A stretch of 64,000 nt of DNA from Candidatus Dojkabacteria bacterium (GCA_040006935.1 JBDTVZ010000001.1:167772-231771); one strand, 5' to 3'; positions 7,483 through 10,902 are shown, numbered from the stretch's first letter. Notes: generated from the letters alone by a model not told the origin. Program-made: numbers and translations.

Positions 7483-10400
7483 ATGGCAGATCTATTAATA
7501 GACAATCTAAATCAATCAAAAATCAATAGTATTTCCTTCGTTGTAAATAAGTTGTCACCTCTTGCAGGTGCTGAGAAAATCCAAAACTCACTGACTACAG
7601 TAAATGAATGCTTAGAAGACCCCATAATATTTGATAGAGAGATAATGGAATTATTATCAACACCGGAAATCTTAGAATCACTTGCGATTAATTTACCAAA
7701 ATTAGATGAAATTGCCTTATCACAATTTCTCTACATACTCTCAGAATTTACAAATATTGCTGAAAGATTAAAGCAAACTACTAGAGATTTGGATTCTAAG
7801 CATATTTTATTAAAGTTACTAAAATGGGGAGCAGAGGATAATAGTTTCTCTGAAATGATTAATAACCTTATTTTAGGTACGCCAAGAAAGTTATTAGTTT
7901 TATTTATAACTGGTAACGTGGGAAGGAAACAGGAGATTTTCAGATATATAACACATTCACGTGGTTTCTCCTGGCCATTCGAAAACATTGAAAGAATTCT
8001 CGATATAGAGAAAGAGCAATTGGAAAAATTTTTTAGTGTTTTCCAAAGTTACTTCCAAATGAGTGAACAAGACTTCCTCTCTGGAAGTGATGCTGAGAAA
8101 TTTGCAAGAATGGCCCTTGTGGATCTTCTTTATTTCCTAATTACAGAATATAGATTTTCTTACGAAGACTTGAAGAGGGCTGGTGCTATTCTAAGCAGCC
8201 TCAAAAACTCTGCCGTTTATATTAACCATGAATTTCGAACTCCTAAAGAATTTGCAGATTTAATAAGATTTTGCTTAGATAATCCTTTTGAGTCATCTCT
8301 GGTCGAAATGGCACATAAGCTAAACTCAAGAGACCCCACTAATGATTGGAAAACAAATTACAAAATCTTATTCAAAAAGACTCTAACGACTTCTAATAAA
8401 TTTGACGCAATTAAATACATAGAGTTTACAGAAAAACTTGAGAAAGCACTAACTGATAATAAGGTTAAAGAATTCTTCGAGAGTAAAGAATTTTTTGATA
8501 ATTGGGCAAGTTATAAACAAATAGTCTTAACTGCGATAATAATAATTGTTTCTAATAGTCCTAAAAGTTTAAATATAATTGCAACACAAATCTGTGAGAT
8601 AGGATTTGAGTTAAAAGAAAATAATCCGGTTTTATATAAAGAAATGTTAAAAATTTTGGAGATATATGAAGGATCTACTAATTCAAGAATAGGCTTATTA
8701 ATACTACTTATTAATTCCTATTCTCGAAACGACTACAAGTTCCCAATAGAAAAAGTTAAGCTTCTTGCAAGTAAATATCAGCAAAGGCTTGAAGACGTTG
8801 ATTTTATAGTTTTTGTAACAGAATGTTTTGCTCAGGGTTCGATGCTAAATATGGAGGAAATAATTAAGGTTTATAACGATCTACTATATGTTACAGAGAA
8901 AGATCCCCAGCACAATAAGAATAACTTCAGTAGAATACTTAACATACGAATTCTTACTGCATTAGCTCAAACTGAAGGATTATTTCTTAATCATAGGGAA
9001 ATATATGATGCACTAATAGCTGCTTCTACAGGGAATGATTTCAAGAGTTTTTCAAAGGGTTTGGAAGGCATTAACAAATTACTAAAACTTGACGTTTCTG
9101 AAAAAAATATTATTGAAATTTTTGAGAATCAGAGAATTAATGATATTGATGGAATATGTACAATTTGGGAATTAACAATAGCTACTTTAAATAAAGTGAA
9201 TTTAAAAATATCATGTGACGTAACCACAACAAAAGTCAGCGAATTTATTGATAATTTTGGAGACTATATTTGCAATACAACAGTCGTAATGTTTCTAACT
9301 ATTTACCTACCGCAACTTTCAGATATATTGCAAACTCCAGTTATAAGATCTTTGGAAGATATTCGTAAATATATAAATAACAAAGCCGCAGATTTTTTAT
9401 TAGAAGATGGTACTACTTATATCCCAGAAAGTGAGTTAGAGAGAAAAATTTTTTCCAAACTTTTAGGCTTATCAACAAGTAGATATTCTAATGGAATTGA
9501 GGATATTTTAAAAGAGAAGCAAGAGAAAGGACCTGAGTTACCTAAAGGATTTGATAAGCCAGTACCAATTTATTTACCTGAAGTTAAGAATGAAAGGAGG
9601 GAGTTAGAAAAAAATGATTTAGAAAGATTAACGAACGCACATAGTAAATTATTTTGGCTTGCATCTTTTTTGGACACGACTGTTCCATTAAAGCTACAAA
9701 GCGACTTCGGGCATTTATTGTGGATGCTATCTAATAGAATAAATTATAAGCTCAAAAAAAACCTTCAGTTAGAAGATCTCATCAATCAAATTTTAAATGA
9801 ATCTGGGAAGATAACAATTCAAGAAGCACTAGAACAAAATCCTAGTTACTTCGATGAATTTATTCTTAAATTAGTAAATATTTACTCTAAACAAGCCGGG
9901 GGAAGCCATTGGAAAAAAGATGAAGAGAGGAATGAGTTAAAAAATGTGATAAGAGGATTTGTATTTGTGAAATTAATCTATACAAATTTACTAAGGAATG
10001 ACAAATTATACGAGCAGGTATTGAACGTTGAGGACCATACCTTGGTCAATATAGAAAGTGTTCAGAGTTTATTAAGAGTGCTTGCACATGATAAATTAGA
10101 AAACATTCTAGGGGATAAAAAGACTGGTAGCTTTGGAATTAATTCAAATGACGTAAACAAGGATAACTCAAAAGAAATTGATAATTTTGTTAGTGAAACA
10201 TTTGGAATAGATACATCTAATATAACTTTAGATGAAAAAAGAGTTTTCTTAAATTTATTCAATTTTCAATCACCATACGATCTAGTTAATGAGTTAAGAG
10301 AAAAATATAAATCTACATATACTGAAAATTTAAGAGAGTATTGGATTTTCCCCTCATTAGGTTTTTGGAAAAAAGTTGCAGGAACTATCGGGAACGCATG

Positions 10401-10902
10401 TTATCAAGGGAAACTGGATGAAGAAACCCATGTGATTGCATTTACAATTGCAAGTGGTAAGAGCGTTAGAGATGCAATATTACAGCAAGACCCCAGCTTC
10501 AAAGATTCAATTAATAATGATTCTAACGTTATTCTAGATGAAGAAGTAAATGTAGAAGGAAATTATTTATTAATTTTAGATACAGTTTTTAACCCTCAAG
10601 AGCCCAGAATCATTTTAAGAGCGGTAAATCCAAATCAAACCTTAGAGAAATTTCACGATAACTACGATATATTTTCGGAACTAGTTAAAACAACCAAAGC
10701 CCAAAATATAATATATAATCCTAAAGGTATTCTAGGATTTGTATTTGATGGACCTATGAATGCTTCTACAAACAATGCCGGTACTTTTATTGCTATGAAA
10801 AAATACAAAAGAAACAAAGGGCTACAAAGGATGCAAGTTGACTCAGTCATAACAAATGTGAACGGATACGATATTTCTCAAACTACTTACTCAGTAGAAT
10901 AA
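7483..10902 (+). CDS. Large (1139 aa) orphan protein, predominantly alpha-helical, Lys/Asn/Glu/Leu-rich, no recognisable motifs
   Basis: Single uninterrupted 3.4-kb ORF with host-like codon usage. TATAAT at 7469-7474 sits 8 nt before the ATG (leaderless-like). No P-loop, HUH, HEPN, PD-ExK or other motif recognised by eye. The C-terminal ~200 aa contains GNACYQG...H. Confidence 0.6.
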   Translation: MADLLIDNLNQSKINSISFVVNKLSPLAGAEKIQNSLTTVNECLEDPIIFDREIMELLSTPEILESLAINLPKLDEIALSQFLYILSEFTNIAERLKQTTRDLDSKHILLKLLKWGAEDNSFSEMINNLILGTPRKLLVLFITGNVGRKQEIFRYITHSRGFSWPFENIERILDIEKEQLEKFFSVFQSYFQMSEQDFLSGSDAEKFARMALVDLLYFLITEYRFSYEDLKRAGAILSSLKNSAVYINHEFRTPKEFADLIRFCLDNPFESSLVEMAHKLNSRDPTNDWKTNYKILFKKTLTTSNKFDAIKYIEFTEKLEKALTDNKVKEFFESKEFFDNWASYKQIVLTAIIIIVSNSPKSLNIIATQICEIGFELKENNPVLYKEMLKILEIYEGSTNSRIGLLILLINSYSRNDYKFPIEKVKLLASKYQQRLEDVDFIVFVTECFAQGSMLNMEEIIKVYNDLLYVTEKDPQHNKNNFSRILNIRILTALAQTEGLFLNHREIYDALIAASTGNDFKSFSKGLEGINKLLKLDVSEKNIIEIFENQRINDIDGICTIWELTIATLNKVNLKISCDVTTTKVSEFIDNFGDYICNTTVVMFLTIYLPQLSDILQTPVIRSLEDIRKYINNKAADFLLEDGTTYIPESELERKIFSKLLGLSTSRYSNGIEDILKEKQEKGPELPKGFDKPVPIYLPEVKNERRELEKNDLERLTNAHSKLFWLASFLDTTVPLKLQSDFGHLLWMLSNRINYKLKKNLQLEDLINQILNESGKITIQEALEQNPSYFDEFILKLVNIYSKQAGGSHWKKDEERNELKNVIRGFVFVKLIYTNLLRNDKLYEQVLNVEDHTLVNIESVQSLLRVLAHDKLENILGDKKTGSFGINSNDVNKDNSKEIDNFVSETFGIDTSNITLDEKRVFLNLFNFQSPYDLVNELREKYKSTYTENLREYWIFPSLGFWKKVAGTIGNACYQGKLDEETHVIAFTIASGKSVRDAILQQDPSFKDSINNDSNVILDEEVNVEGNYLLILDTVFNPQEPRIILRAVNPNQTLEKFHDNYDIFSELVKTTKAQNIIYNPKGILGFVFDGPMNASTNNAGTFIAMKKYKRNKGLQRMQVDSVITNVNGYDISQTTYSVE

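Follow-up and report, generated by a model that had tools for sequence, protein, structure and literature searches.

Macro domains (PF01661, clan MACRO), represented by E. coli YmdB, A. fulgidus Af1521, and human OARD1/TARG1, have an ADP-ribose pocket and are the described domains that come closest, though only weakly, to the one considered here. Other systems that invite comparison are the Cys-His hydrolases and deamidases (papain-like, NlpC/P60, and CNF1-type), the acyltransferases of the GNAT superfamily, and, at the level of the locus, tRNA-linked integrative elements and islands. In this study, we analyzed a stretch of 64,000 nucleotides (the window; GCA_040006935.1, JBDTVZ010000001.1:167772-231771) from an uncultured Candidatus Dojkabacteria bacterium and focused on one open reading frame (ORF) at positions 7483-10902. 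The source of this ORF is a metagenome-assembled genome (MAG) belonging to the candidate phyla radiation (CPR)/Patescibacteria, on a contig of 516,739 bp, and its 1139-aa product (ABI721_00875) is referred to below as the query. A first-pass annotation of the window had described the product as an all-helical orphan encoded in a landing zone for integrated elements. We found that the query consists of two modules, a predicted helical region of residues 1 to ~954 without detectable relatives and a predicted alpha/beta region of residues ~955 to 1139.

Results

A rare C-terminal domain connects the query with proteins of several phyla

Sequence searches of Pfam, NCBIfam, PADLOC, PHROGs, and PDB with the full-length query gave no match. 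About 15 billion proteins contained no full-length match other than the query itself, and a search of 5.8 billion clusters also returned self only. An exhaustive phmmer search against 1.84 billion cluster representatives detected, in addition to self, one 186-aa contig-end fragment, P0002, that matched query residues 1024-1136 (113 residues) with an E value of 5.9e-5; a G-IG-ACY motif is present further upstream in this fragment. The relatives beyond P0002 were recovered by profile searches combined with degenerate-pattern scans. They are P0003, a 250-aa contig-end fragment found by profile search (BLASTP with the query, 1.6e-8), and the long proteins L003/L004, L005, and L006, which brings the number of members besides the query to five. 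A third word-index profile search revealed no further members, a scan of genome contigs with the single query protein detected no relative, and a look-up of contigs by the exact protein returned no record.

Homology was confined to the C-terminus of the query. The shared domain, with its AG-IG-ACY and I-RAVNP motifs, spans ~165 aa and is 23-29% identical between the query and the long relatives (BLASTP of L003g with the query, 1.1e-5). In the six-member alignment (A6), 20 columns were invariant, and all 20 residues are present in the query; besides those of the two motifs (Table 1), they include A986, G1026 and L1029 of a G..L strand, A1094, N1097, D1120, and N1127 in query numbering. A profile prepared from the three long relatives without the query was then subjected to hhalign analysis and still found query residues 955-1135 (E value 1.2e-5, probability 81%), which establishes the query as a member of the family. 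Searches of the same five libraries with the domain alignment gave nothing usable, and no gene neighborhood was common to the six family loci. The C-terminal ~185 aa form a compact domain, predicted to be alpha/beta, that belongs to a very rare, undescribed family distributed across several phyla.

The long relatives derive from Omnitrophota- and Planctomycetota-type organisms. L003 and L004, both from metagenomes, are contigs of nearly identical sequence that carry an ORF of 2469 aa (L003:4883-12292; JGI Ga0315287_10000252), L005 is a contig of the Candidatus Omnitrophica UBA2593 MAG (DDKR01000162.1) with one open frame of >2154 aa (L005:275-6736), and L006 is a contig of a Planctomycetia MAG (CAZWYD010000093.1) with a 963-aa ORF (L006:458-3349). 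The L003, L005, and L006 proteins carry N-terminal signal peptides, whereas the query does not, and none of the three gave a significant Pfam match. They have ~430 aa upstream of the domain in common, at 33-55% identity and with WGHGS(N/S)RG and other motifs, and the N-terminal ~345 aa of L003 and L005 are 72% identical. These large relatives are an uncharacterized protein family of their own. When the query was compared with their ~430-aa upstream region, HMMER gave -1.6 bits and hhalign gave 19.2, compared with 16.6±2.0 (maximum 20.4) for shuffles. Homology between this region and the N-terminal 950 aa of the query is unproven; the stretch 524-556 was suggestive, but its score was within the shuffle range. 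In L005, a zincin-like HELTH motif was also observed ~300 aa after the domain.

A tentative similarity to macro domains

We next examined the domain family for similarity to known folds. In Pfam, one of the six members matched Macro (PF01661) at 11.8 bits, compared with a cut-off of 22 bits (E value 0.23), with PVFILRAVNP...IKLIVAP placed against profile positions 55-100. A macro profile of 11 sequences was therefore used for comparison, consisting of seven real YmdB-type sequences and four further sequences; three of the latter were recognized by the real profile at 98-99.5%, and the fourth, OARD1/TARG1, was confirmed against PDB 2LGR and 4J5Q. With hhalign, the six-member alignment scored 25.3 against this profile (P 0.0027, probability 11%), columns 22-133 being aligned with columns 43-136. 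Column-shuffled controls scored 11.9±2.4 with a maximum of 22.7 (0/150 reached 25.3), and 27 unrelated proteins scored at most 19.3. The four Omnitrophota/Planctomycetota-type members alone scored 28.4 (P 6.7e-4, probability 27%). OARD1/TARG1, a solved macro protein, scored only 23.3 against the YmdB-type profile, indicating that divergent true macro members can score as low in this test.

The low-stringency alignment was collinear with macro over the whole domain. In this register, vkAFATkgilgemAGDI lies opposite iVNAANpslmGGGGVdgAI, ItAIifT opposite the G.a.iT strand, ILRAVNP opposite vIHxVGP, the following helix opposite α3, and LIVAPvGnSGA opposite sIAFPaIsTGv. The sequence comparison is consistent with a divergent macro-like (ADP-ribose-pocket) fold for the C-terminal domain, an assignment that we regard as tentative and rather doubtful (see Discussion).

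The protein carries no recognizable catalytic motif

A motif scan of the 1139-aa protein detected no Walker A, HExxH, HUH, CxxC, PD-(D/E)xK, GxSxG, or LPxTG motif, and the two R-x4-6-H strings present correspond to chance level. No transmembrane segment was found, since no Kyte-Doolittle 19-mer reached 1.6, and MADLLIDNLNQSK, the N-terminal sequence, does not qualify as a signal peptide. By these sequence features, the query is a protein of the cytoplasmic type. BLAST against itself and the window revealed neither internal repeats nor window paralogues. The view of the first-pass annotation that the protein is an orphan without recognizable motif or family was supported by the motif scan and by the family-library and protein searches, and homology to a housekeeping family, which would have spoken against it, was not seen in the family-library or protein searches. 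Its all-alpha prediction held for residues 1 to ~950, but the last ~185 aa were predicted to be alpha/beta (low-confidence models). Its description of the sequence as Lys/Asn/Glu-rich was correct only to a mild degree, with Glu, Asn, and Lys at 8.3, 8.2, and 8.2% compared with 5.8, 6.2, and 7.5% in the remaining window genes. No described family includes the protein, and these data do not demonstrate a system of a new kind.

The ORF is intact and may be expressed as a leaderless mRNA

The G+C content of the segment was 0.30-0.35, equal to that of the regions flanking the ORF, and GC1>GC2>GC3 was observed in nearly all 100-codon blocks. Under a codon model derived from 31 further genes in the window, the frame of the ORF beat both shifted frames by 28-75 nats in 27/27 overlapping 80-codon windows. 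A run of 1139 stop-free codons at ~31% G+C cannot be a chance open frame, and the frame-specific codon signal together with the GC pattern throughout indicates one continuous host-like coding sequence (CDS) and no frameshift fusion. As had been noted from the sequence, this is a single 3.4-kb ORF of host-like composition, and its codon usage is host-like over the whole length. The ORF is a genuine, intact, and chromosomally native gene of Candidatus Dojkabacteria.

A putative promoter with an extended -10 element precedes the ORF (Table 1). Its TATAAT box (7472-7477) starts 11 nt before the ATG and stops 5 nt short of it. The first base of the start codon is located 6 nt past the last T of the box, a geometry that fits a leaderless mRNA. 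The first-pass annotation had proposed a leaderless-type promoter here; the box indeed abuts the ATG, but the distance is not the 8 nt that was given. A near-identical ATGGTATAAT box precedes tRNA-His at 14956-14970. As a class, promoter-like sites showed no enrichment over shuffles, and promoter function of 7449-7477 is therefore only inferred. The Shine-Dalgarno motif was missing in 40/42 long ORFs of the window and present in 2/42, and a TAnAAT box was found 11-15 nt before the start in about 7/42 window genes. The scarcity of Shine-Dalgarno motifs and the TAnAAT boxes near starts suggest that this Dojkabacteria genome relies as a rule on leaderless, short-leader, or otherwise Shine-Dalgarno-independent initiation. 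With short-leader starts genome-wide, the promoter can no longer be taken as a sign of special independent expression, as had been proposed. Its own extended -10 element may drive transcription of the ORF into a leaderless mRNA, the usual case in this genome, and the transcript may include the EamA gene located 30 nt downstream.

The locus is an ordinary chromosomal region

The ORF begins the 7.46-kb segment between tRNA-Arg(TCT) and tRNA-His(GTG), and the 3' ends of both tRNA genes face inward, as the first-pass annotation had stated (Table 1). The neighbors of the ORF are ordinary chromosomal genes. Co-transcription of the EamA gene with the ORF is possible, and the hairpin located between the convergent EamA and 423-aa genes is likely to be a bidirectional terminator closing the ORF-EamA unit.

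We then examined whether the segment carries traces of integration. No integrase or recombinase was found among the five genes between the tRNAs by Pfam annotation, and the 423-aa product, for which Pfam gave nothing, is a multi-pass membrane protein. The direct-repeat check was run across the window for both tRNA 3' ends, and each occurred only once when up to 3 mismatches were allowed, so that no att-type repeat was present. The segment showed no break in composition or codon usage. By tblastn, no relatives were detected in 72,556 plasmids and 50,697 phage records, and a scan of IMG/VR viral contigs detected none. An integrated element or tRNA-linked island was rejected on these grounds, and the proposed landing zone did not hold.

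Table 1. Positions of the features in and around the ORF, counted from the first nucleotide of the window
Feature	Position	Strand	Description
DnaE	1574-5137		Upstream of the ORF
LysM-M23 peptidase	6182-7099		Upstream of the ORF
tRNA-Arg(TCT)	7330-7404	+	ARAGORN and Rfam agree; 3' end 78 nt upstream of the ORF
Putative promoter of the ORF	7449-7477	+	-35 TTGGTA (7449-7454), 17-nt spacer, extended -10 TGgTATAAT (7469-7477)
ORF, intact CDS of 1139 aa	7483-10902	+	ATG start; NCBI, hypothetical protein ABI721_00875
N-terminal region, aa 1-954	7483-10344	+	Predicted all alpha-helical (low-confidence AlphaFold2); no homologue, repeats, or window paralogue
C-terminal conserved alpha/beta domain, aa 955-1139	10345-10899	+	Sole part with relatives; six-member family
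Motif AGTIGNACY, aa 966-974	10378-10404	+	A966, G967, I969, G970, A972, C973, and Y974 invariant
Motif ILRAVNP, aa 1044-1050	10612-10632	+	I1044, R1046, A1047, V1048, N1049, and P1050 invariant
EamA-family (drug/metabolite transporter, DMT) gene	10933-11820	+	30 nt downstream of the ORF; PF00892, E value 1.4e-26
Perfect palindromic hairpin, G+C-rich, 12-bp stem	11867-11894		GCGAGCCCTTCT-TTTA-AGAAGGGCTCGC; between the convergent EamA and 423-aa genes
423-aa multi-pass membrane protein	11913-13184	-	Convergent with the EamA gene; no Pfam match
S-adenosylmethionine (SAM)-methyltransferase	13268-14233	-	~190-aa N-terminal extension without assigned function
179-aa CxxC-x17-CxxC treble-clef zinc-ribbon protein	14245-14784	-	PF23477/TIGR04272; Lys/Glu/Arg-rich tail
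tRNA-His(GTG)	14861-14935	-	ARAGORN and Rfam agree

Several other features of the window were observed. The 423-aa membrane protein has an N-terminal transmembrane segment, an outside domain of ~230 aa, and about five C-terminal transmembrane segments. The SAM-methyltransferase matched PADLOC mad2 (methylation-associated defence, E value 8.6e-17) through its generic methyltransferase core only. Upstream of tRNA-Arg, a promoter-like TTTACT-17-TGaTATAAT site (7128-7156, + strand) is followed by a G+C-richer structured stretch of ~170 nt (fold z = -3.1) that lies shortly before the tRNA gene (site and stretch, 7128-7330) and carries, at 7226-7239, an exact 14-nt copy of the 5' end of tRNA-Arg, GTGCCCGTAGCTCA (7331-7344 in the tRNA gene). 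The structured stretch matched no Rfam family and may represent a small RNA without annotation, the leader of a tRNA, or a remnant of one. At 33086-46213 (+ strand), a 4375-aa protein with Kelch repeats, seven IPT/TIG domains, and DUF7948 is encoded, adjoined at 46229-51661 (+ strand) by the gene for a 1810-aa protein with weak bacterial Ig-like domains. This gene pair (33086-51661) overlaps the one part of the window that is G+C-rich (34-39 kb, at 0.40-0.45). Both proteins are probably surface adhesin-like, and neither showed any likeness to the 1139-aa protein.

Discussion

We found that an orphan gene of Candidatus Dojkabacteria ends in a domain that recurs in only a few large proteins of other phyla. 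The explanation that we favor, at slightly less than an even chance, combines a native gene with its own promoter and a product in which a helical arm is joined to a rare C-terminal module with a macro-like pocket. The helical ~950 aa would serve as a scaffold or targeting arm, and the C-terminal module would be the functional end, with a nucleotide- or ADP-ribose-like binding pocket in a divergent macro-like fold; this division of labor is possible rather than probable. In the macro register, the invariant residues would fall in two pocket loops and the central strand, and C973 would take the place of a buried helix residue. It would then probably not be a nucleophile, nor the module a Cys-His hydrolase. 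Since the catalytic Asn of MacroD is absent, binding or other chemistry is likelier than hydrolysis of the MacroD type.

A number of observations weigh against this explanation, most of them against its macro-like element. Macro was picked from the noise at the top of a scan of 24,736 families, where an E value of 0.23 is chance level, and because of this selection the pairwise P values are not significant after correction. The hhalign probabilities were only 11-27%. The query itself did not match Pfam Macro, and against the macro profile it scored 11.4 alone and 13.7 together with P0002, both of which are background; when the profile was limited to the seven real YmdB-type sequences, the domain family scored only 17.4. 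The catalytic Asn of MacroD (NAAN) and the Gly triplet are not kept in the family. The pocket residues are AFAT for NAAN, AGDIG for GGGV, and N-S-G-A-L in loop 2, where S/T-G-hydrophobic-aromatic-G is expected, and loop 2 of the query is M-N-A-S-T, without Gly. The structural check proposed by the first-pass annotation was of little help. The AlphaFold2 models had a predicted local distance difference test score (pLDDT) of 36 for the whole protein from its single sequence and of 48.5 for the C-terminus with a three-sequence multiple sequence alignment, and Foldseek on the C-terminal model returned noise without a significant match, with EEP nucleases at the top, TM-scores below 0.3, and no macro domain. 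Moreover, the query gene is known from one genome only, and the scaffold role of the N-terminal region is pure inference.

Other readings of the C-terminal domain were considered. It could be a non-catalytic interaction or assembly module of a new fold, in which case the protein would be structural or scaffolding and the invariant residues would have structural roles. No catalytic motif or known fold was detected, the invariant residues are mostly G, A, I, L, V, or P, and the protein body is long and helical, all of which agree with this reading. However, the polar residues R1046, N1049, N1097, D1120, N1127, and Y974, as well as C973, are invariant at ~25% identity in several phyla, and conservation of polar residues across phyla is what a ligand or active site would more typically show; we consider such a module rather unlikely. 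The first-pass annotation had suggested that the last ~200 aa might hide a Cys-His enzyme fold. This part of the protein proved to be a distinct module and the sole conserved one, and C973, inside the Gly-rich motif, is invariant in 6/6 members, as would be expected of the nucleophile of a thiol-dependent enzyme with an unrecognized fold. By contrast, H983, ten residues on, is kept in only 3/6 members and the domain has no invariant His column, which means that a Cys-His dyad is not a feature of the family. The G-x-C-x-G elbow and any papain, NlpC, transglutaminase, or caspase signature are also missing, and the Cys aligns with a buried helix position in the sole profile match obtained, leaving a thiol enzyme improbable. 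The Cys-His enzyme fold was rejected because the candidate His is not conserved and neither a family signature nor a profile match was found. Likewise, inspection of the GDACY motif led us to drop caspase-like, NlpC/P60, transglutaminase, E2, sortase, and nucleophile-elbow readings, since partner residues such as His or Gly-x-Cys-x-Gly are absent or unconserved. A GNAT-like acyltransferase was suggested by the β-α-β-β-β-α-β-α-β-β order of the low-confidence model, which fits GNAT topology, and by a few GNATs that appeared, along with chimallin, among the Foldseek and Pfam noise. We therefore prepared a profile of seven E. coli K-12 GNATs, which detected each left-out GNAT with 94-98% probability (scores 50-81). 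In this controlled hhalign test, the domain family scored 7.8-14.5, compared with 6.6-16.3 for 20 unrelated proteins. The Q/R-x-x-G-x-G/A acyl-CoA loop is not present, and RAVNPSEEFL occupies the position after β4. The GNAT fold was rejected on the background scores and is very improbable.

The remaining alternatives concern the protein or its locus as a whole. Because the first-pass annotation saw a resemblance to secreted effectors, we considered a host-directed effector of an episymbiont that uses non-classical export. CPR bacteria and many Omnitrophota are thought to be host-dependent, and the L003, L005, and L006 proteins each begin with a signal peptide. The query, unlike these three long relatives, has neither a signal peptide nor a transmembrane segment, no secretion-system genes are adjacent, and no effector, toxin, or defence family was detected in it. 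An immunity-like gene was found neither downstream of the query, where the EamA gene is located, nor downstream in L001, L002, or L006. The effector reading is therefore quite improbable. The ORF might instead be carried by a mobile element or genomic island that inserted at tRNA-Arg or tRNA-His, given its position between two inward-facing tRNA genes and the fact that a serine recombinase and an IS3-type transposase adjoin the relatives in L001 and L006, respectively. Against this, the intervening genes encode the EamA transporter, the membrane protein, the methyltransferase, and the zinc-ribbon protein but no integrase, the tRNA 3' ends have no second copy, G+C content and codon usage are uniform and host-like, and plasmid, phage, and viral matches are lacking, so that we give island cargo very little credence. 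A fusion of frameshifted pseudogenes or a non-coding ORF is next to impossible. The uniform one-frame coding signal in all 27 windows refuted the concern that parts of the ORF have low coding potential, stop-free codons extend over the full 1139 positions at ~31% G+C, and the C-terminal domain is kept in frame.

Returning to the favored explanation, a macro-like pocket would open a wider, and improbable, perspective, namely that the module represents an unrecognized, extremely divergent macro-like family that binds ADP-ribose or nicotinamide adenine dinucleotide (NAD) metabolites and occurs only in large proteins of lineages (CPR, Omnitrophota, and some Planctomycetota) that are ultra-small, host-dependent, or predatory. 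If this were true, it would point to bacterium-host interactions linked to ADP-ribosylation, with the Dojkabacteria protein as a cytoplasmic, scaffold-tethered version. If the macro-like signal were confirmed, a divergent family with an ADP-ribose pocket would become known from host-dependent nanobacteria; otherwise, the domain would be a new unknown at the level of the fold. In either case, an alignable domain of ~165 aa with sharp invariant motifs has been gained, a small target for structure prediction and biochemistry compared with an unknown of 1139 aa. Through the domain, an orphan of Dojkabacteria is connected with large proteins from Omnitrophota and Planctomycetota that bear signal peptides, and three attractive readings, island cargo, a Cys-His enzyme, and a secreted effector, have been removed. 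CPR genomes abound in large hypothetical proteins that are specific to one lineage, and the impact of this ORF is limited accordingly.

Comparison with known systems

The locus resembles tRNA-linked integrative elements and islands in that the query gene lies directly 3' of a tRNA gene, but differs from them in lacking an integrase, an att duplication, a compositional shift, and mobile-element homologues. With the GNAT superfamily, the domain has the order of predicted strands and helices in common, whereas profile similarity and the acyl-CoA pyrophosphate-binding motif are absent. The likeness to Cys-His hydrolases and deamidases consists of the invariant Cys and, in the query, a His 10 residues later; the family differs in that this His is unconserved and that no signature or profile match was found. 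Macro domains are similar to the family in size and alpha/beta character, and three blocks appear collinear: AFAT..AGDIG with NAAN..GGGV, ILRAVNP with vIHxVGP, and LIVAPvGnSGA with sIAFPaIsTGv. The family differs from them by an extra β-hairpin of ~15 residues before the RAVNP strand, by a match below the Pfam cut-off, and by an unconserved catalytic Asn and Gly triplet, the query being the most degenerate member. The closest likeness is to the large relatives from Omnitrophota- and Planctomycetota-type organisms. Their signal peptide and conserved ~430-aa upstream region were not detected in the query, and the two giant relatives continue for ~600 aa beyond the domain, whereas the query ends with it. 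The relatives and the query nevertheless have in common the ~165-aa domain with identical AG-IG-ACY and I-RAVNP motifs, and in both the protein is large and mostly helical, with the domain at its C-terminus or close to it.

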